Source: a bacterium (lineage in GTDB: Bacteria; Patescibacteriota; Minisyncoccia; UBA6257; Colwellbacteraceae). From it: 64,000 nucleotides of DNA. The stretch lies in assembly GCA_021787205.1 (NCBI GenBank), contig JAJYME010000006.1:15644-79643 (forward strand), given 5' to 3'. Positions within the stretch are counted from its first letter, which is position 1. Each line of letters opens with the position of its first letter. Both the position numbers and the translations under genes were made by a program. Below are positions 841-45,944 of this stretch, piece after piece. Under the pieces are notes generated by a model, which saw nothing but the letters and a program-made list of their open reading frames with translations, searched no databases and was not told the DNA's origin.

Positions 841-2727
841 TCAGTCTTTTTTAATAATCCTGTTGTTATAATACCATTCGAAGACATCTTTGGCGATTGG
901 AACGGCGTTCAACCCTCCCTCCTTGGCGTTCTCCACCAAGACCAGGACGCAAACTTCCTTGGGCGCGTTTTCTTCTGCGGTTATTTTCTCCTTTGGCACC
1001 GAATTGTAATTCGCGCATCCGACAAAGAAGGCGTTGGTCTTTTTGTTGTTTTGGATCTGGGCGCTTCCCGTCTTCCCGTAAACATCGAAGGGCAGACTGT
1101 CCAAAAGATGGGCCGTGCCGTAGTCCTTGGTGACCGCGTCTCTCATTCCGATTTTTGCCTCGGCGATATAACTCGCCAGATTCGTATCATCTTTGAGCAC
1201 CTGTTTGTCTTTGAAAGACAAGTGAGGGGTATAGACGGTTCCGCCATTGTAAATGGCTGAAATGGCCGAAATAAGGGAAATAGGGGTCACTACCATATCG
1301 CCCTGGCCGATCGAAGTGATGTAGGTATCGCCTATCGTCCAATCGATCCCGGTTCTCTTTTTCTTAGCTTCCGGAGTCGGGATTATCCCGACATTTTCAG
1401 AAGAAAGCTCTATCCCTGTTTTTGTATCCAATCCGAACAAAGAATAATATTTCCCCAGCCTTTCGATTCCTAATCCTTTGACTACCCCACCCCATCCTTT
1501 GAATAGGTCGGGGTTTTGGAGCAAGCCTCCTCCGGCTGCATAAAAATAAATGTTTGATGATCTCGCGATCGCAGAGTGAAGATCAACCCAACCGTGGGCC
1601 TTCCAGTCGACAAAACGAGTCGGATTGTCCGGATTGTACTTGTTGGGGATGTACATTTTTCCGGCCGAGTATACCTCATCATCGACTCTCATTACCTTCT
1701 CCGCCAGGACACCCGTAGCCACGATCGGCTTGATTGTCGATCCTGGAGAGTAAAGCCCTGAGATGGCGCGGTTCAGGAGCGGATGGTTTTCATCGATCAT
1801 CGACTTAGCGATATCTGAAGATGAGAATGAGGGCGCGGATACCAGCGCCAAGACCTCGCCATCGGTTGGATCAAGGGCTATTCCGACCGCTCCTGGACCG
1901 GATCCGATCCGCTTCATCAAATCAAGCAAGGATTGATAGAACTCATTTGTCAGACCGGCATCAACTGTCGTTTGCAAATCGTCGCCTTTTTTCGGCTCGC
2001 TGAAATTTCTCTGACCCAACTCTTTGCCCAAGGAGTTCCTGTAAGAGATTATCTTTCCGCTCTCGCCCCTAAGGGTCTCGTCAAAAAGATATTCCAGATT
2101 GGTCTTGCCGACGGTGTCTGACGGGGTGATCTTCTTTGAACTAAGATCTTCCTTTGTGGGAAGTCCGGTATATCCGACCACGTGGGCAAAGGGCGGCTCA
2201 AAAACTCGCTTCACATCCGTCCTCACTGAAAGTGAAGACAGGTTTAATGACTCTATGCTTATGGCTTCTTGTTTTGTCAGGTCTTTCTTTAGAAGGATCC
2301 CGTCTGAAGAAGCTCCGAACTTTGAAACGATTTCCGAAAACTCGGATTCGGTCATATTTATTAAGGGCAGCGCCTTTAAGACGGCCGGAGCTTCATTATT
2401 GGACACGGCTGACGAAGGATAGAAATAAACGGAAAGCGCCGCCTCGTTCTTGACGATAGGAGTCCCGTACCTGTCTCTTATTATTCCACGCTCAGCCGGG
2501 GTAATGATTACCCGATTGACATTGGATTCCGCTCTCGAAACATAGTAATCGTGTTTTATAAGAGAAAGATAAGCGACTCTTCCGATAACGATAAGGACAA
2601 TGACCCCAAAGAACGCAGCCAAGAAGCCAAAACTGCGTTTTTCAAGAGGACGCTCTACCCCGAATGCTTGCATATATTCCAGAGTGAATTCGTCAAAATC
2701 AAGGTTGTACTTTCTTCCGTGTTTCAT
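841..2727 (-). CDS. mrdA: Penicillin-binding protein 2 / peptidoglycan D,D-transpeptidase
   Basis: 628 aa with an N-terminal TM segment. Has the STIKP (SxxK), SSN and KTGSA motifs. Sits immediately downstream of mreBCD. Confidence 0.8.
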   Translation of the reverse strand: MKHGRKYNLDFDEFTLEYMQAFGVERPLEKRSFGFLAAFFGVIVLIVIGRVAYLSLIKHDYYVSRAESNVNRVIITPAERGIIRDRYGTPIVKNEAALSVYFYPSSAVSNNEAPAVLKALPLINMTESEFSEIVSKFGASSDGILLKKDLTKQEAISIESLNLSSLSVRTDVKRVFEPPFAHVVGYTGLPTKEDLSSKKITPSDTVGKTNLEYLFDETLRGESGKIISYRNSLGKELGQRNFSEPKKGDDLQTTVDAGLTNEFYQSLLDLMKRIGSGPGAVGIALDPTDGEVLALVSAPSFSSSDIAKSMIDENHPLLNRAISGLYSPGSTIKPIVATGVLAEKVMRVDDEVYSAGKMYIPNKYNPDNPTRFVDWKAHGWVDLHSAIARSSNIYFYAAGGGLLQNPDLFKGWGGVVKGLGIERLGKYYSLFGLDTKTGIELSSENVGIIPTPEAKKKRTGIDWTIGDTYITSIGQGDMVVTPISLISAISAIYNGGTVYTPHLSFKDKQVLKDDTNLASYIAEAKIGMRDAVTKDYGTAHLLDSLPFDVYGKTGSAQIQNNKKTNAFFVGCANYNSVPKEKITAEENAPKEVCVLVLVENAKEGGLNAVPIAKDVFEWYYNNRIIKKD

Positions 2728-3702: not shown

Positions 3703-3864
3703 TTTTTTGATTCCAAATGATTTGTCTGAATTCTAACAAAATTTCTCAAAAATATAAAGAGAACGACACAAAAACAAAAATAAGTAAACACCTCCCTGCC
3801 TTCCCTGAACCTTTACCAGGCTCCAAGCATAAGGTATTTACTTATTTTATTGATGCTATGCCGT

Positions 3865-7639: not shown

Positions 7640-8397
7640 GGTGTTGATTTTAATTGAAGTTTTTTATTTAAGTTGAATTGTTTTGAAAGATAATAACGAT
7701 GAAGCGATTCTTTCAGGTTCTGATAACTCTTTTCCTCCGAGTTATATAGGTCAAGCAGTGATTTCAATATGAACTTGTCATACTCCGCCTCCGTTTCGAA
7801 TTTAAGATCTTTTGGAGCTTTGATCTTTTGCCAGTCTTCGGACAAGATAGCCTTCGCCAGTCCCGGCCGGCCGAGAGAAATTCTCGCCAGGCTTTCCGCT
7901 TCCTTTTCCGGAAGTTTGCATTCCTCAATCAGCCAGCTTCTCATTATTTCCATCTGGACTCTTGGAAAGTATATTTTCCTGAGCCTCGAAGCGAGGGTCG
8001 GCAAGATTGACTCCGATGAATTCACCGTCAAGATGATCAAGGAATGGATTGGCGGCTCCTCAGTTATCTTCAAGAAGGCGTTTTGGGCCTCCCTTGTCAT
8101 ATTTTCCGCGTCACGGACGATGACCGTCCTATAATCGGAAGCTACCGGAACGACGGCTAAGAAGTTTTTTATCTCTCTTATCTCATCGATTCCGATCGTA
8201 TTCCTTTCCGGGTCAGGACTGATTATGAAAGCATCGGACAAAACCGAAGGATTCTTCTCTAAGGAATTCGCCAGCTCAAGAGCAAAGGCGAACTTCCCTG
8301 TCATCGGTTCTCCGAAGAACAGATAACTGCCCCCGAGAGTTCCCGACTCCCTCATTTTTGTTATGATTGCTTTTTCTTTTTCCCGACCTATTAACAT
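7627..8397 (-). CDS. holB: DNA polymerase III delta' subunit-like AAA+ clamp-loader protein
   Basis: Degenerate P-loop GEPMTGKFAFALELA, a DAENMT Walker B-like box, and the sensor TLASRLRKIYF (an SRC-like motif). 256 aa. Confidence 0.6.
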   Translation of the reverse strand: MLIGREKEKAIITKMRESGTLGGSYLFFGEPMTGKFAFALELANSLEKNPSVLSDAFIISPDPERNTIGIDEIREIKNFLAVVPVASDYRTVIVRDAENMTREAQNAFLKITEEPPIHSLIILTVNSSESILPTLASRLRKIYFPRVQMEIMRSWLIEECKLPEKEAESLARISLGRPGLAKAILSEDWQKIKAPKDLKFETEAEYDKFILKSLLDLYNSEEKSYQNLKESLHRYYLSKQFNLNKKLQLKSTPWIL

Positions 8398-8421
8398 TTT
8401 ATTTTAAAAATTATACAGATG

Positions 8422-8544
8422 ACGCAAACACTCTCGCAGCGTTATCTGCAGCGATTCGGCCCGGTCGGCGCCACGGGCGACGCGAATCGCGAAGCCATTC
8501 GAGTGAGCGCCGGCTCACGAGATTAGCGAGAGAGTTGTTTGCGT
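8422..8544. ncRNA. Copy A of a ~120-nt structured intergenic element (see findings); strand unknown
   Basis: Terminal inverted arms CGCAAACACTCTCGC and GCGAGAGAGTTGTTTGCG enclose two hairpins; hairpin 2 has a GCCG loop, the GCYG-loop counterpart of copies B and C. Related copies lie at 10699-10825 and 45811-45930. Confidence 0.45.
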
Positions 8545-8564
8545 TGTTTGTAATTCGCTCGTAA

Positions 8565-9702: not shown

Positions 9703-9743
9703 CTAAAAACTAAAAGAACCCGACGGTTAACGTCGGGTTCTTT
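9703..9743 (-). terminator. Intrinsic terminator downstream of map
   Basis: Perfect stem GAACCCGACG/CGTCGGGTTC followed, on the minus strand, by a TTTTAGTTTTT tract. Confidence 0.5.
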
Positions 9744-9840: not shown

Positions 9841-10668
9841 TTAGGTCAAAATGACCGGTCCGGATTTGCTGATGCTGATCGTATGTTCAAAATGGGCCGC
9901 AATCGATCCGTCTTCAGTCGCGTATGATCCATCAGAAAGAGAAACGATTTCCCCCTCCCCCAAGGCGAACATCGGTTCGATCGCCAAGACCATTCCTTCT
10001 CTCAGTTTCATTCCGGTTTTCGGATTGCCGAAGTTCCAAACGAAAGGATCTTCATGGACAGCTAATCCGACGCCGTGTCCGGAGAGTCCTTCAGCGATCG
10101 AAAGCTTGAACTTGTTCGCCGTTTTCTCTATTGCCCAACCGATGTCCCCAAGGCTATTTCCGATTATAGAAACCTTGATTGCCTCTTCCAAAGCGATTTT
10201 CGTTCCGTCAATCAATCTCTTTATCTCCTTCGGCATTTCTTTTTCATCCCCGACGAATACCGTCGTAGCCGAATCGGAAAAATAACCGTCGAGATTGACC
10301 CCAAGATCAAGCTTCAAGACATCGTGAGCGCGCAAAACGTAATCCCTAGGTATTCCGTGGACAACGATATTGTTTACTGAGGCGCAAATCGAAGCCGGAT
10401 AAGGCTCACTTGCTCCTTCCGGCCTATAATGGAGAAAGGAAGGGACTCCACCCTCGTCAGTGATCAGGTCGTATGCCAGCTTGTCCAAAAAAGAGAGTTT
10501 TACCCCTTCCTTGGCTGCCTTCTGAAGTCGCCCCAAAGCCCTGTTGAGAATCGCCCCGGAGGCGGCGATACCCTCGATCTGCTCCTCGGTTTTTATTAGA
10601 TTTTTATTCGTATTTTTACTCAATTTGCAACTTAATAACCAAACCTTTGTGTGGTAGCAAATTACCAC
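9841..10668 (-). CDS. map: Methionine aminopeptidase type I
   Basis: Pita-bread metal-ligand pattern (D..D..H..E..E) and the typical position after adk. Confidence 0.9.
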   Translation of the reverse strand: MVICYHTKVWLLSCKLSKNTNKNLIKTEEQIEGIAASGAILNRALGRLQKAAKEGVKLSFLDKLAYDLITDEGGVPSFLHYRPEGASEPYPASICASVNNIVVHGIPRDYVLRAHDVLKLDLGVNLDGYFSDSATTVFVGDEKEMPKEIKRLIDGTKIALEEAIKVSIIGNSLGDIGWAIEKTANKFKLSIAEGLSGHGVGLAVHEDPFVWNFGNPKTGMKLREGMVLAIEPMFALGEGEIVSLSDGSYATEDGSIAAHFEHTISISKSGPVILT

Positions 10669-10698: not shown

Positions 10699-10825
10699 AA
10701 GCATCATATATCTTCATAGCGGCTTTTGAGGCATTTTGGCACGGTCCGACAAAGTCGGCAAAATGCCGAAACCTCGGAGGATGTCGCTGGACGTCCGAGA
10801 ATGAGCGAGAAGATATATGATGCTT
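10699..10825. ncRNA. Copy C of the structured intergenic element
   Basis: 17-bp terminal inverted repeat AAGCATCATATATCTTC and GAAGATATATGATGCTT, with an internal hairpin of AAA loop and a second hairpin of GCTG loop. Confidence 0.45.
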
Positions 10826-11596: not shown

Positions 11597-12757
11597 TTAT
11601 TTGACATACCAGCGCATCACGAATTGTCCGGCGTCGCTGCTCGAACAAGAAGTGTTGTAATAGAGCGCCCCGTTGTACCCAGTCCACTTAAAAACCCAAT
11701 CTAGCTTGAGTCCGGTCATATCGGTGGCGCTGCAGCAAGGATTTGCCCAAACGCCATCAGCCCAGTTACACATTCCAAAACTGGTATAAGAACCGCCGTA
11801 TGGAGGATTGTAGTAGCCCGTCGAACCGCCGCCGATGCTGGAACACTGGAGAATGCTCGTCGTCCTGTGCAACAAGGTGGTCACATTATTATAGGGTATC
11901 TTTACCGAAGTGATATCATATTGTTTCACGTTGACGCTGCAGCTTGTTCCGTAACCGGTTCCGACAACATCCGATCCGTTCCAGGCAGCCGTCCCTTTAT
12001 TAACGACAATGCTTGCCAGATTGGCATTAAGCGCCGTCCAACCGCCACCATCCGAAACCATATCGCAATCGACGGCAATGATCGGTTCTATGCCGGTTCC
12101 GTCAACGTCTATCCAATATTGGCCGCTCGCCGCCTGGGAGTATTTCGTCTTGATATCGAGACAACTTGTCCCTTTAGCTACATTGGGGGCGACTGTCAGT
12201 GAGTTCCCCATCTCAAAGACGGCTCCATTATCTCCCCCGTCCTTAGCTGCCGAATCAAAGAATTTCGCCGATTCCACCGCCGCGTCAATCTCAAAGCCTC
12301 CGGCGGCCGCCGCATAAACATAATAGGATCCGGTCGAACCATCGTTCTTAGGATCGATTGGTAAGACCGAAACCGGCGATCCTCCTTTTATATTTCTGAA
12401 ATCTGTCGGCATCCAGCCCGTACCGTCAATCTTGCGGAGATTTGCGGTTGTCACGCATCTGTAAGTCCATCCTGAAGGCAGGGCCGGCAGGCCGGTTATG
12501 TTGGCGCAGGTCGCGGATGTATCCGGGATGGAGATATAGGCGACATTGGCCGCCCCAAGGGAGGTGGCGGGACTGTCGGCGATCAAAAGCATTGTCGCAT
12601 CATCGATTGATTTGATGTCTGTCTTCCTGCTTGAATCCCTTGATTGGGCTAAAAGTTCCGTCGGATTGAGGACTAAGACCGTTGCCGACCCCAAAACGGC
12701 GACGATCGCAATCACTATAAGAAGTTCTATTAAAGTGAAAGCCCGAATACGAGACAT
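11597..12757 (-). CDS. Type IV pilin/pseudopilin-like protein with a large Cys/Gly/Thr-rich C-terminal domain
   Basis: N-terminus RAFTLIELLIVIAIVAVLG is a class III prepilin signal carrying the conserved Glu5. 386 aa. Its own terminators sit on both sides. Confidence 0.6.
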   Translation of the reverse strand: MSRIRAFTLIELLIVIAIVAVLGSATVLVLNPTELLAQSRDSSRKTDIKSIDDATMLLIADSPATSLGAANVAYISIPDTSATCANITGLPALPSGWTYRCVTTANLRKIDGTGWMPTDFRNIKGGSPVSVLPIDPKNDGSTGSYYVYAAAAGGFEIDAAVESAKFFDSAAKDGGDNGAVFEMGNSLTVAPNVAKGTSCLDIKTKYSQAASGQYWIDVDGTGIEPIIAVDCDMVSDGGGWTALNANLASIVVNKGTAAWNGSDVVGTGYGTSCSVNVKQYDITSVKIPYNNVTTLLHRTTSILQCSSIGGGSTGYYNPPYGGSYTSFGMCNWADGVWANPCCSATDMTGLKLDWVFKWTGYNGALYYNTSCSSSDAGQFVMRWYVK

Positions 12758-12856
12758 TATGAGAAATATTTTAACAAAAAAGAGCCTGATACAAAAACAG
12801 CCCGAGTGTCTTTCGACACTCGGACGGTTTTTGTTTGAAATATTTCGTTTTCAAAT

Positions 12857-14137: not shown

Positions 14138-14318
14138 GCTTTCCTCTTAATTTTGGCAAGCGCTGAATCATATCTCTTTCAGCAGGGCGGATACGATGAC
14201 CCGAACGGGACTTCTGTCCCTTCTGGCCTTTACCTGAAGTTGTACCACGCTTTCCGCCGCGACCGACGCGCTGTGCGTCTTTATTTTCGTGAATTGCTCT
14301 AATTTCGTGAAGTTGCAT
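14130..14318 (-). CDS. rplO: Ribosomal protein L15, N-terminal domain only (62 aa)
   Basis: GRGGKRGTTSGKGQKGQKSRSG…QRLPKLRG aligns with the first ~60 aa of L15. A stop follows, and the ORF overlaps the secY start by 8 nt. Confidence 0.7.
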   Translation of the reverse strand: MQLHEIRAIHENKDAQRVGRGGKRGTTSGKGQKGQKSRSGHRIRPAERDMIQRLPKLRGKHA

Positions 14319-14325
14319 AATGAGA

Positions 14326-15144
14326 TTACTTTACGGATTTAAGCTGCTTTAAGGCGGCGACGGTAGCCATAGCATTGGTTAATTTGTTCTTGGTTCCTCC
14401 AAGGCACTTTGCAGTGACATCTTTTACTCCTGCGAGCAAAAGAACGGAACGAACAGCTCCACCAGCCATAAGTCCGTGTCCGGGTTTAGCCGGGCGGATA
14501 ATGACTTGGGCGGCAGAGAACTTGGCTTTTGTCTCGTGAGTGATAGTTCCCTCTACGATCTTAAAGGTGACAAGTTTCTTCTTGGCAGCGGTCTTTGCCT
14601 TGGAAACAGCTGACTGGACGTCAGCCCCCTTAGCAACACCGACACCGATGGTTCCTTTTCCATCTCCGATTACAACAGTAGCTCGGAAGCGGAAGCGCTT
14701 TCCACCGGCGACGACACGAGTGACGCGGCGAAGGTCAAGAACAGATTCATTGAATCCATCTCTTTCTTTTTCGACTTCCTTTCTGAAAGGACGTCCACCT
14801 CTTCTGTCTCCGCCTTGAGAGCGGAATCCTCCCTCACGCTTTTCTCCAGGCTTGAAAGGACGGCGAGGTCCGCCAAATGAAGGGCGGGTTCCCTCTTGTC
14901 CTTGAGGACGAGGAGTGAACGGTCGGGAGCCTGCTGGTCTGGGCGTAAACGGCCTAGATCCGGCAGGACGAGAACCTTGTTGTCCGGCAGGACGAGGAGT
15001 GAAAGGACGGGAGCCTGCTGGTCTGGGCGTAAACGGCCTAGATCCGGCAGGTCTCGCGCCAGCGGGTCTTGCGCCAGCCGGTTTAGCGCCGGTGGGACGA
15101 GGAGACGAAGCTGGTTTGGTTGATTGTACTTTTTGTTCTTCCAT
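14326..15144 (-). CDS. rpsE: Ribosomal protein S5 with a ~120-aa Pro/Arg/Gly-rich repetitive N-terminal extension
   Basis: The C-terminal 150 aa form the canonical S5 (RVTRVVAGGKRFRFRATVVIGDGKG…). The N-terminus carries PAGSRPFTPRPAG repeats encoded by an 84-bp tandem DNA repeat. Confidence 0.9.
   Translation of the reverse strand: MEEQKVQSTKPASSPRPTGAKPAGARPAGARPAGSRPFTPRPAGSRPFTPRPAGQQGSRPAGSRPFTPRPAGSRPFTPRPQGQEGTRPSFGGPRRPFKPGEKREGGFRSQGGDRRGGRPFRKEVEKERDGFNESVLDLRRVTRVVAGGKRFRFRATVVIGDGKGTIGVGVAKGADVQSAVSKAKTAAKKKLVTFKIVEGTITHETKAKFSAAQVIIRPAKPGHGLMAGGAVRSVLLLAGVKDVTAKCLGGTKNKLTNAMATVAALKQLKSVK
14906..15052. repeat. In-frame tandem repeat (two ~62-nt near-identical units spaced 84 bp apart) inside the rpsE 5' region
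   Basis: GGACGAGGAGTGAAnGGnCGGGAGCCTGCTGGTCTGGGCGTAAACGGCCTAGATCCGGCAGG appears at 14906-14967 and again at 14990-15052. Confidence 0.8.
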
Positions 15145-28263: not shown

Positions 28264-28335
28264 TCTTTTATTACGGGCTGTAGTATAACGGCAGTATATA
28301 CCCTTGGGGTGGGTACGACCCGGGTTCAATTCCCG
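28264..28335 (+). tRNA. tRNA-Pro (anticodon GGG); CCA not encoded
   Basis: C1-G72 acceptor CGGGCTG/CAGCCCG, anticodon arm TACCC-TTGGGGT-GGGTA, and T-arm CCGGG-TTCAATT-CCCGG. Confidence 0.85.
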
Positions 28336-28346
28336 GCAGCCCGACA

Positions 28347-28380
28347 TAATAAATAATCCCTACCGTAAGGTGGGGGTTAT
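28347..28380 (+). terminator. Intrinsic terminator after tRNA-Pro
   Basis: CCCTACC-GTAA-GGTGGGG hairpin followed by TTATTTTTATT. Confidence 0.5.
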
Positions 28381-28514
28381 TTTTATTCATAAGGGCCGGG
28401 AATTGAAAAGGGATGGGGTCGGAAGGGAGACGAAGGTATCCCTTCCGTATTGGAAGCTCGCGAAACGGAAGTTTCGCGGGAGCGAGCCGCGCCTCGCGAC
28501 GTGAAATAGCGAAG

Positions 28515-28590
28515 CGTCCCGGCAGCCCGACATAATAAATAATCCCTACCGTAAGGTGGGGGTTATTTTTATTCATAAGGGCCGGGAATT
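28515..28590 (+). repeat. Direct repeat of the last 15 nt of tRNA-Pro plus the 60 nt downstream, including the terminator hairpin
   Basis: 28321-28395 is repeated nearly exactly at 28515-28590. The two copies are separated by a ~120-nt GC-rich insert. Confidence 0.85.
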
Positions 28591-28929
28591 GGAGACATAA
28601 AAAGCCGCGTTATATACAACGCGGCTTTTCTAACCCGACTTTAAGTTAGACTCCCGGCTAATGCCAGATTGGCAGTCCTCAATTTTAACCCACGGGTTAA
28701 AAAAATGTTGGATAGCCTTAAAAAATTATTTGATCCGGAATCTAACTTGTCGGATAATTTTATTATATATGACTGTTAAGAACAGTAAATATCAAAAAAT
28801 AAAAGACTTTTTTCAGACTTGACACTCATTCACTTCCTAAGACCTAAAATGATTTTTAACGCAAGAGGACTTATTCACAATCAGCATAAAAAAACAGCAA
28901 CTTAAAGCTGCTGTTTTCATATTTGACTT

Positions 28930-43859: not shown

Positions 43860-45752
43860 TTAATTAGAATTCGTAGATTCTGAACCACTATCCTCTCGGG
43901 TTTGTTCTCCTCTACCGGGCTCATTTGTATTTGCATTGGCGTTGTCTTTATTGTACATAATTTCGCCAATCTTTTGAAGCTCGGTCGACAATGCTTCGAA
44001 TTTCGATTCTATGTTTTTTTCGTCATCGCCCTTCAAGGCGTCACGAAGATCGGTAATCTTGTTTTCGATGGAAACCCTAAGCTCAGAAGACACTTTTTCT
44101 CCGGCGTCCTTAAGGGACTTCTCGGCGGTATAGATCAGGTTTTCTGCCATATTTCTCTTTTCTGCCAGATCTCTGATCTTCTTGTCGGCTTCGGCCGCTT
44201 CGGCCGCCTCCTTCTTCAAGCGCTCGATTTCATCCTTGGACAATGAGGTTTTGGCCTCGATCCTGACTGATTGTGACTTTCCGGTCGCCTTATCGGCGGC
44301 TTTGACGTTCAAAATTCCGTTGGCGTCAATGTCAAAAGTGACTTCGACTTGCGGGACTCCTCTCGGTGATGGCGGGATTCCCTCTAGGACGAACTTGGCC
44401 AAGGTTTTGTTATCGGCAGCTCTCGCTCTCTCTCCCTGGGTAATATGGATTTCAACTGACGTCTGGTTGTCCGAGGCGGTGGAGAATATTTGCGACTTCG
44501 CAAAAGGAATGGTCGTATTCTTCTCAATCATCGGAGTGGCGATCCCACCCATTGTTTCAATCGAAAGGGTCAAAGGAGTGACATCGAGCAACAAGACGTC
44601 TTTGACATCTCCTTGGAAGATTCCTCCCTGGACAGCTGCTCCTAAAGCGACAACTTCGTCAGGATTGATTCCCCTGTGGGGATCCTTTCCAAAAATGCTT
44701 TTGACGGATTCCTGGATGGCTGGCATCCTGGTCTGTCCTCCGACCAAAATGACTTCGTCGATATCCGAGATCTGAAGCCCGGCTTCCTTGACGGTCGCCT
44801 TAGTCAGCTCTCCGGCTCTTCCGATCAGATCCGCAACAAGCTCCTCGAGCTTGGAACGGGTAATTTTCATCTCCAAGTGTTTCGGACCTTCAGCGATATA
44901 AGGAAGATTGACGGTGGTCTCGACAGCGGACGAAAGTTCATGCTTGGCGCGCTCGACCGCTTCCTTCAAACGTTGTAAAGCGAGTGAATCCTTGGAAAGG
45001 TCGACTCCTTCGGTCCTTTTATATTCGGCAATGACGTATTCCTGGAGTTTTGTATCCAAGTCGTCTCCACCCAAATGGGTGTCGCCTCCGGTTGAAAGGA
45101 CTTTGACATCTCCTCCCAATGAATCGAAATCGACTTCCAAGACGGAAACGTCAAAAGTTCCTCCTCCAAAATCATAAACGACGATTTGTTCGTTCTTTTG
45201 CTTGTTCAATCCGTAAGCTAAAGCGGCAGCCGTCGGTTCGTTGATGATTCTTTTGACGGTCAATCCGGCGATTTCTCCGGCGTTCTTAGTCGCTTGTCTT
45301 TGGGCATCGTCAAAGTAGGCCGGGACGGTAATGACCGCTTCGGTGACTTTCTCGCCCAAGCGCATCTCGGCATCCGCCTTAAGCTTGGCCAAGACCATGG
45401 CGGAAATTTCTTCCGGAGCATGCCATTTGTCTCCTAACTTTATCTCGACACCGCCGTTTGCCGACTCTCTGATGTCATATGGCAACAAGGCTTTGTCCTT
45501 CTGGACTTCCGCGTCGGTCCATTTGCGTCCGATAAGACGCTTGACCGAAAACAGAGTATCCTTCGGGTTGGTGACCGCTTGGCGTTTAGCCAAAAGGCCG
45601 ACCAGTCTCTCATTTGTTTTTGAAAGCGCGACGATGGAAGGAGTTGTTCTCGCTCCCTCGGCGTTTTCAATAATAGCTGGTGATCCATCGGATCCGACAA
45701 CCGCCACGGCGGAATTAGTCGTTCCAAGATCGATTCCTATTACTTTTCCCAT
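43860..45752 (-). CDS. dnaK: Chaperone DnaK (Hsp70)
   Basis: [17 protein letters not shown] and [11 protein letters not shown] motifs. 630 aa. Confidence 0.97.
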
Positions 45753-45810
45753 AGTTACATATAATAATGAATTTATTTACAAAATTAAAGAGCTTGAAAA
45801 TAAACAAAAT

Positions 45811-45930
45811 AAGCATCACTCTCGCAGCGTTGTCTGCAATATTTTGGCACGGTCGGCATAAAATGCCGCAAAATACGAAGCCATTCAAGCAAATCGCTGG
45901 ATTTGCTTGATCAGCGAGAGAGTGATGCTT
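45811..45930. ncRNA. Copy B of the structured intergenic element (between grpE and dnaK)
   Basis: Terminal arms AAGCATCACTCTCGC and GCGAGAGAGTGATGCTT. Hairpin CGGCAT-AAA-ATGCCG. Hairpin CAAGCAAATC-GCTG-GATTTGCTTG. Confidence 0.5.
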
Positions 45931-45944
45931 ATTTTTGTATATTT

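Follow-up and report, generated by a model that had tools for sequence, protein, structure and literature searches.

The 64,000-nucleotide (nt) stretch of contig JAJYME010000006.1 analysed here, which we call the window, contains three copies (A, B, and C) of an intergenic hairpin element. They belong to an undescribed family that spans metagenome-assembled genomes (MAGs) of Patescibacteria, Omnitrophota, and Planctomycetales. The pairing in the element is under selection, and the elements represent inserted DNA, subject to turnover among strains that share about 99% identity. We see about an even chance that they are structured small mobile intergenic repeats, similar to miniature inverted-repeat transposable elements (MITEs) of the ERIC or Correia type, in which the folded core is the selected part. 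Small mobile repeats fit their behaviour better than gene-specific regulatory RNAs do.

Read directly in the letters of the window, the three copies share one architecture. On the + strand, a 5' terminal arm of 15-17 nt is followed by an arm (P3), a hairpin (P2), and a 3' terminal arm complementary to the first (positions are in Table 1; + denotes the better-folding strand and not a proven transcript). The terminal arms are ACGCAAACACTCTCGC/GCGAGAGAGTTGTTTGCGT in A, AAGCATCACTCTCGC/GCGAGAGAGTGATGCTT in B, and AAGCATCATATATCTTC/GAAGATATATGATGCTT in C. This agrees with the first-pass annotation, which had been made from the sequence of the window and had described such an architecture. The AAA loops it named in B and C, the loop GCCG in A and GCTG in B and C, and the blocks AGCGTTRTCTGCA and GAAGCCATTCRAG common to A and B are likewise present. 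A and B also share a small hairpin, GCAG-CGTTRT-CTGC.

What is conserved is the two-arm core of P3 and P2, enclosed by a long terminal inverted repeat whose sequence is specific to each copy. Conservation is strongest in a one-sided internal loop of P3, GCACGGTC (GCCCGGTC in A), which faces a single G and had not been named by the annotation; it is an 8x1 loop of consensus GCMCGGTC, bracketed by ..TTYG and CRAA... The apical hairpin that caps P3 is free in sequence, and so is the stem of P2, which is closed by TC[GCYG]GA. Two details of the annotation had to be changed. Its 'hairpin 1' combined the apical stem CGGCAT/ATGCCG of B with the basal stem GCGATTCG/CGAATCGC of A, which are not homologous; the basal stem of A corresponds to ATATTTTG/CAAAATA in B and GGCATTTTG/CAAAATGCC in C, and when the copies are realigned the covariation remains. 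The inverted repeat of copy B runs beyond the limits first assigned (45811-45930), out to 45806-45935. In copy A, a weaker inverted repeat reaches outward to about 8408-8553.

A conserved fold in diverse genomes

Folding of each window copy gave z scores of -3.8 to -7.6, and none of 200 shuffled sequences folded as well. Covariance model R1 was built from A, B, C, and a copy from a related strain (D, see below), and model R2 from 20 copies. R1 recovered A, B, and C in the window with scores of 98-132 bits (E 1e-27 to 4e-38), and the best match besides these in an unfiltered search (E 0.04) was the reverse strand of B. R2 agreed, finding the same three copies only in the 64 kb; over the models the E-values of the three ranged from 1e-23 to 1e-38, and a next best match at E 0.5 was also recorded.

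Other genomes and metagenomes were scanned with the pattern TCCAGCGA-N(30-60)-GACCGTGCCAAA, which represents the loops of P2 and P3 as read on the minus strand. The scan gave 36 stretches in species-representative genomes and 74 in metagenomes of the Joint Genome Institute, about the number expected by chance, and true copies were told from noise by their match to the covariance model and by whether their stems were complementary. This left about 19 additional copies: four on three contigs of the Patescibacteria MAG REEB161, one each in a Lloydbacteria, an Omnitrophota, and a Planctomycetales MAG, and about a dozen on metagenome contigs, including three contigs of one sample. The binning of a MAG is no proof of its phylum; the flanking DNA differs among all copies. 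The elements are 120-190 nt long and non-coding, and single genomes can carry several of them, as the three in the window and the four in REEB161 illustrate. Their neighbours elsewhere, read by eye, are also housekeeping genes (recA, gyrB, rodA/ftsW, proC, and MTAP). The open reading frame between two copies on L035 (sequences from outside the window bear L numbers), considered as a transposase or TnpB, reads as a RodA/FtsW-type protein.

Several pattern matches were discarded. Those in L078 and in Poribacteria lie in coding sequence without stems and are false positives, and six matches in viral contigs are chance matches and not family members. Matches in L011, L017, L021, L022, L029, and L033 (five Poribacteria assemblies and one 'uncultured bacterium' MAG) have the same 68-nt spacing, near-identical sequence, and no stems; they are most likely a conserved coding segment and not the element. 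On L062, two members lie in opposite orientation at 1028-1146 (+) and 1172-1290 (-) with 26 nt between them, the one inverted adjacent pair seen. The second (L062b) is strongly diverged (28.7 bits).

Covariation was evaluated on 20 distinct copies aligned to the model, so that the alignment is one fitted to the model. Standard pairs filled 87.8% of the paired cells, compared with 58.0% when partners were shuffled and 33-46% when the partner was slid by 1-3 columns. Cells changed on both sides numbered 220, compared with 69 after shuffling and 24-56 after sliding, and 33 of the 38 pairs contained double-sided changes. The supported helices are the terminal stem (93% and 87% paired), upper P2 (90%), P3 (98%), and the apical hairpin of P3 (95%); the small hairpin of A and B (62%) and lower P2 (63%) are not family-wide. 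Both loop motifs were fixed by the search pattern, and the unbiased copies are A, D, and L062b only. These keep the loops as CCGGCG and GACCGGGC in A, TCCAGCGA and AGCCGTGC in D, and CCGGCG and GACCAAGC in L062b.

The compensatory change with retained pairing noticed in the three window copies is thus massive in the larger set. The annotation had taken it as a mark of RNA as opposed to a transposon-like repeat, and this contrast is not supported: the copies behave as inserted DNA that turns over, and covariation is expected under both explanations, because it is also expected for repeats that work as folded RNA or single-stranded DNA, such as ERIC, Correia, REP, and attC.

The copies match no described RNA family in Rfam 15. 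At gathering thresholds the whole window gave three tRNAs and no element, and in E-value mode up to 10 nothing overlapped A or C. Matches over B and over two distant copies, L036 and L023, were at chance level and far below the gathering scores (uxuA, 17 bits with a gathering score of 67; Actinomyces-1, 17 bits with a gathering score of 39). Models of microRNA hairpins matched element arms, at best with E 0.0027 for the arms of L023. The hammerhead, twister, twister-sister, hairpin, pistol, and hatchet models gave no match even at E = 10. Reading by eye against consensus sequences, we found no fit to the hammerhead, the K-turn, loop A of the hairpin ribozyme, domain 5 of group II introns, 5S rRNA, or the thiamine pyrophosphate (TPP) box. 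Plasmid and phage collections held no DNA similar to the elements. The literature searched by sequence strings, accession, and topic contained nothing relevant to the element, and no account of small mobile repeats in Patescibacteria or of structured intergenic elements present there in multiple copies. A peptide is excluded because the spacing between the two motifs takes all values modulo 3 and no frame is open across the copies, in line with the earlier remark that the short open reading frames are not conserved.

Insertion and turnover between strains

Strain ERZ27237050 has flanking genes 98.8-99.5% identical to those of the window. Its adk-map junction has no copy C, and its mreB-holB junction carries another member of the family, D, in place of A, the flanks being identical up to the borders. 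Copy D aligns with A only at the motifs. At grpE-dnaK, copy B is identical in five strain-level contigs (ERZ27237050 and four others). A match to GCCGCTCAT hints that the short adk-map sequence of ERZ27237050 (L002) may be a remnant or footprint of an element.

All three copies are absent from two sister species, whose GrpE is 84% and 72% and Map 87% and 77% identical to that of the window and of which the better-assembled one has the same gene order; a model search of about 49 kb of fetched sister-species DNA found no copy. The mreB-holB junction of the sister species is TAAaactttATG, 6 nt long, and the adk-map junctions are 20 and 28 nt. A, C, and D were therefore inserted, since these ancestral junctions are too short for any earlier hairpin. 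For the same reason, the variable arms of A/D and C did not arise by insertion into pre-existing palindromes. Such an insertion is possible at grpE-dnaK, where the sister species have 120 and 89 nt with an ordinary terminator of A-tract, stem, and T-tract.

Core and arms have separate histories, to judge from the sequences of closely related copies. L012 and L062 have cores of about 100 nt that are about 96% identical, and their flanking arms (about 20 nt) are unrelated. In L023 and L019, from the same MAG, the cores are identical but for one loop; the arms are about 60% alike, and every difference is compensated. Terminal inverted repeats occur in every copy, with arms of 15-45 nt that are conserved within subtypes only. 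Despite the unconserved termini across subtypes, many copies begin with (A/G)GCA, and within one subtype, represented in several metagenomes and in the MAGs of Omnitrophota and Planctomycetales, a terminus of about 30 nt is conserved (TGAGGACATTGTG.., with ends TGAGGACATTGTGTTTTC.. / ..GGAAATACAATGGCCTCA).

In four of the five aligned copies with the TGAGG terminus, TA stands directly outside both ends and is followed by unrelated DNA; a sixth such copy, L085, is flanked by AA and TA. Copies B, L064, L100, and L117 are also flanked by TA on both sides. In B, the TA dinucleotides at 45810-45811 and 45930-45931 border AGCATCAC...GTGATGCT and lie within an A/T-rich outer repeat. TA flanks are not shown by A, C (on one side), D, L023, or L019. 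IS630/Tc1-type elements, Correia, and RUP carry a TA duplication, and by analogy the TA flanks are at most suggestive of a target duplication.

Other hairpins with long arms occur in the same DNA. At 3777-3848 of the window lies an intergenic hairpin element with 17-nt arms (AAAATAAGTAAACACCT/AGGTATTTACTTATTTT), of which the first 8 nt equal the outer arm of copy B; its 38-nt centre is unrelated, and the minus strand folds better (-34.8 vs -20 kcal/mol). MAG REEB161 has further long hairpins at L019:3122-3236, L019:4608-4722, L035:1540-1637, and L023:7001-7085, with arms of 21-35 nt, centres of about 45 nt, and z scores of -4 to -11; arms and centres alike are unique. Long inverted repeats peculiar to each copy seem to characterise the intergenic DNA of REEB161 in general.

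Nature of the element

If the elements are small mobile repeats, the folded core, as RNA or single-stranded DNA, would be a cis-acting module recognised by the factor that copies or moves them, and the core would for that reason be conserved and the termini not. The moving activity would be supplied in trans, because no copy carries or adjoins an enzyme gene. An element inside an operon would be read through, and a hairpin of -50 to -70 kcal/mol between cistrons could then act as a site of processing, stability control, or partial termination. Such processing and stability effects are known for Correia and ERIC elements; here, any effect on the host would be incidental to the element's own spread.

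The comparison with ERIC, Correia, and RUP rests on the general features of these families. ERIC elements (also IRU), found in Enterobacteria, are imperfect palindromes of about 127 nt, co-transcribed and folding into a long RNA hairpin. The present elements resemble them in lying in intergenic operon DNA in either orientation, in forming a long hairpin with compensatory changes, and in varying in presence between strains. They differ in that ERIC, which is known only from Enterobacteria and Vibrio, has a consensus conserved from end to end, whereas this family has variable ends and a conserved internal core. Correia elements (CREE/NEMIS) of Neisseria and RUP of pneumococcus are similarly non-coding repeats with terminal inverted repeats inserted next to genes; they are 100-160 nt long with TA flanks, and their transcript hairpins are cleaved by RNase III, which alters mRNA stability. 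Correia and RUP have fixed termini of about 26 nt, and RUP has an IS630-type partner, whereas our family has unconserved termini and no partner was found. In short, ERIC, Correia, and RUP keep their ends and drift inside, whereas this family keeps an internal fold and frees its ends, which points to recognition of the folded core by a factor acting in trans.

Several observations weigh against the interpretation as MITE-like repeats. Termini unconserved across the family are the opposite of what ordinary MITEs show. The TA flanks are a weak signal: TA reads the same on both strands, the flanking DNA is rich in A and T, and the repeat dies away outward without sharp ends. No transposase, integrase, or reverse transcriptase gene lies beside any copy, and no longer element with the same termini occurs in about 1 Mb of fetched DNA; an autonomous partner was found neither there, nor among the neighbours, nor in the viral, plasmid, and phage searches. 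Copies within one genome are only about 60-70% alike, which indicates no recent burst. The loop sequences are conserved across phyla, part of this apparent conservation being imposed by the search pattern. Finally, this loop conservation and two features of the pairing fit a functional RNA at least equally. The first feature is the number of G.U pairs over whole elements, 81 on the + strand and 42 on the other. The other is a recurrent 2x2 mismatch in P2, which is a tandem G.A on the + strand (CGAGTC-GCTG-GACGAG) and pyrimidine-pyrimidine on the other, and which is present in six copies of different subtypes.

These last points bear on the explanation that we rank next, as possible but clearly the less probable one: the core is a structured RNA functional in the host (a small RNA, a protein-binding module, or a small ribozyme) with several paralogues per genome, the long terminal stem merely holds the fold, and gene transfer and loss account for the patchy distribution. 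The elements bear the classical signature of an RNA family, with invariant loops and junctions and covariation in every supported helix; A and B have almost the same junction blocks and entirely different stems. The loop motifs persist in the unbiased copies, tandem G.A is stable in RNA, and in 15 of 19 copies the + strand of the whole element has the better fold, the advantage reaching 21 kcal/mol. The elements also resemble orphan RNA motifs in Rfam, such as three-way-junction RNAs and small ribozymes, in their junction architecture, fixed loops, covarying stems, and multiple copies, and in a patchy distribution like that of the hammerhead and twister; they are unlike these in that no Rfam model matches A or C and no hammerhead core is readable, so that they would form a new class.

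The asymmetry between strands is less decisive than it appears. Part of the whole-element wobble signal is inherited with the shared terminus of one subtype, and in the core pairs alone the wobble count (26 vs 19) is not significant, for which reason we rejected a strand call from these pairs. Neither neighbourhood nor orientation is constant, and no strand is co-transcribed with a neighbouring gene in all cases. All eight copies of the window lineage and its look-alikes have the strand that folds better antisense to the surrounding operon. In the remaining subtypes this strand is mostly that of a gene lying upstream, and the gap is often a convergent one. The 8/8 bias could simply mean that insertions in operons survive only in the orientation with the weaker mRNA hairpin. 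The element is furthermore absent from the sister species and is dispensable or replaceable between near-identical strains.

A riboswitch or leader is also not indicated, since the downstream genes are unrelated (holB, map, and dnaK in the window; recA, gyrB, proC, and others elsewhere), the orientation varies, and orthologous junctions lack the element. A promoter scan at the elements found nothing convincing. The sigma-54 promoter suggested by TTGGCACGG has no TTGC at the required spacing, and a sigma-70-like match, TTGGCA-17-CAAAAT, occurs in C only, the spacing being variable in other copies. A CIRCE operator, which came to mind from the dnaK context and the resemblance to TAAGCA..CACTC, was rejected, as the same ends occur at adk-map and the element is absent from relatives.

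We give a small chance to a variant of mobility in which the core is a new structured nucleic acid that drives its own spread and the arms are made at insertion rather than inherited. One option is that such a core acts as RNA, possibly catalytic or recognised by a reverse transcriptase, and moves via an RNA intermediate; another is that it is a fold-specific DNA substrate of some enzyme. The long copy-specific arms would then be produced at insertion, for example by inverted copying.

Quite unlikely, in our judgement, is that the fold is used as single-stranded DNA in the manner of known recombination and transposition substrates. The sites attC, REP/REPIN-RAYT, and the ends of IS200/IS605 are recognised by fold and not by sequence, which gives covariation in DNA, and the elements agree with them in conserving structure with free sequence, in their variable termini, and in the replacement of copies at the same site (A/D); the unpaired segment, being asymmetric, could distinguish one strand from the other, which is the role of extrahelical bases in attC. 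In contrast to attC, there are no R''/R' core sites (RYYYAAC/GTTRRRY), the ends reading AAGCATCA, ACGCAAAC, and TGAGGAC, and the copies are solitary between housekeeping genes and not in cassette arrays. REP/REPIN sequences are 20-40 nt long with a GTAG-type motif, whereas the elements have 120-190 nt, a three-way core, and no such motif; IS200/IS605 has subterminal hairpins without the terminal inverted repeat that the elements possess. No gene for an HUH or tyrosine recombinase was seen beside any copy. The + strand shows negative GC skew throughout the window, and so it is probably the template of the leading strand and not the strand left exposed at the fork.

Very unlikely is that the elements are immobile intercistronic terminators or RNase III hairpins elaborated in place: a plain terminator does occupy the position of B in the sister species, T-rich runs follow the terminal stem on both strands in B and on the gene strand in C (none in A or D), and long unique hairpins are common in Patescibacteria intergenic DNA, but elaboration in place is excluded at two of the three window sites because the ancestral junctions were too short to hold a hairpin, the same core occurs at unrelated loci in different phyla, and a terminator scan found no canonical terminator at the elements.

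Positions, other features of the window, and significance

Table 1. Window positions of the three copies and their parts.
Feature	Position	Strand	Remarks
Copy A, whole element	8422-8544	+	108.9 bits, E 6e-31 (model R1)
A, 5' terminal arm (P1)	8422-8437	+	pairs with 8526-8544
A, small hairpin P4	8436-8449	+	GCAG-CGTTAT-CTGC; A/B subtype only
A, arm P3	8451-8490	+	stem GCGATTCG (8451-8458) / CGAATCGC (8483-8490)
A, P3 internal loop	8459-8466	+	8 nt, GCCCGGTC, opposite G8482
A, P3 apical hairpin	8467-8481	+	
A, arm P2	8503-8518	+	GTGAGC-GCCG-GCTCAC
A, 3' terminal arm (P1)	8526-8544	+	pairs with 8422-8437
Copy C, whole element	10699-10825	+	98.1 bits (R1); 17-nt perfect arms
C, arm P3	10728-10775	+	stem GAGGCATTTTG (10728-10738) / CAAAATGCC..CCTC (10759-10775)
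C, P3 internal loop	10739-10746	+	GCACGGTC, opposite G10758
C, P3 apical hairpin	10747-10757	+	CGAC-AAA-GTCG
C, arm P2	10779-10796	+	GGATGTC-GCTG-GACGTCC; T.G pair on +, C.A on minus
Copy B, whole element	45806-45935	+	132 bits, E 4e-38 (R1); 18-nt perfect inverted repeat and further pairing
B, arm P3	45839-45876	+	stem ATATTTTG (45839-45846) / CAAAATA (45869-45875)
B, P3 internal loop	45847-45854	+	GCACGGTC, opposite G45868
B, P3 apical hairpin	45855-45867	+	GGCAT-AAA-ATGCC
B, arm P2	45886-45909	+	CAAGCAAATC-GCTG-GATTTGCTTG

Copy A lies between mreB (stop codon 8565-8567) and holB (start at 8397), copy C between adk (stop codon 10834-10836) and map (GTG start at 10668), and copy B between grpE (stop codon 45945-45947) and dnaK (start at 45752). 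The flanking genes are those named by the first-pass annotation (DNA_pol3_delta2 and MreB, Peptidase_M24 and ADK, HSP70 and GrpE), all on the minus strand. Homologues of GrpE and Map bear names such as Colwellbacteria, Wolfebacteria, and Parcubacteria, which places the window in a Patescibacterium of the Parcubacteria/Paceibacteria type. Between map and mreB, a 13-bp bidirectional terminator at 9713-9743 makes adk-map and mreB-holB separate transcripts. Another terminator hairpin, nested in a longer A/T-rich inverted repeat, lies at 12763-12846 between secY and a pilin-like gene. This gene (11597-12757, minus; 386 amino acids (aa)) has a weak N_methyl (type IV pilin-like) signal and sits between secY and adk, inside the ribosomal-protein/secY/adk/map cluster; in the sister species, one or two pilin-like genes occupy this position and a further one lies between map and mreB.

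Two other repeats lie elsewhere in the window. A perfect direct repeat of 75 nt (28331-28405 and 28517-28591) has 111 nt of G+C-rich DNA between its two copies, the first of which starts within the 3' end of tRNA-Pro (28274-28345) and takes in the downstream hairpin; the repeat resembles an attL/attR-type duplication that an integrated element, since lost almost completely, has left behind. An 84-nt tandem duplication, 87% identical (14881-15048), lies in the unusually long gene for ribosomal protein S5 (277 aa, about 14311-15144, minus; mapped from L002) and constitutes an in-frame repeat of 28 aa in an essential ribosomal protein.

The genomes of Patescibacteria are commonly described as streamlined, with little mobile DNA. 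Here, hairpins of 120-190 nt are wedged into junctions that otherwise measure 6-28 nt, beside essential genes (mreB/holB, adk/map, and grpE/dnaK). A conserved internal fold with free termini is at odds with ordinary MITEs, and its consensus is now defined. If a core that drives its own spread were the true explanation, this would be a mobile element defined by its internal fold and not by its ends, shared among ultra-small bacteria of several phyla. Because strains of about 99% identity differ in the element, it probably contributes to differences in operon expression from strain to strain and should be useful as a marker to tell strains apart.

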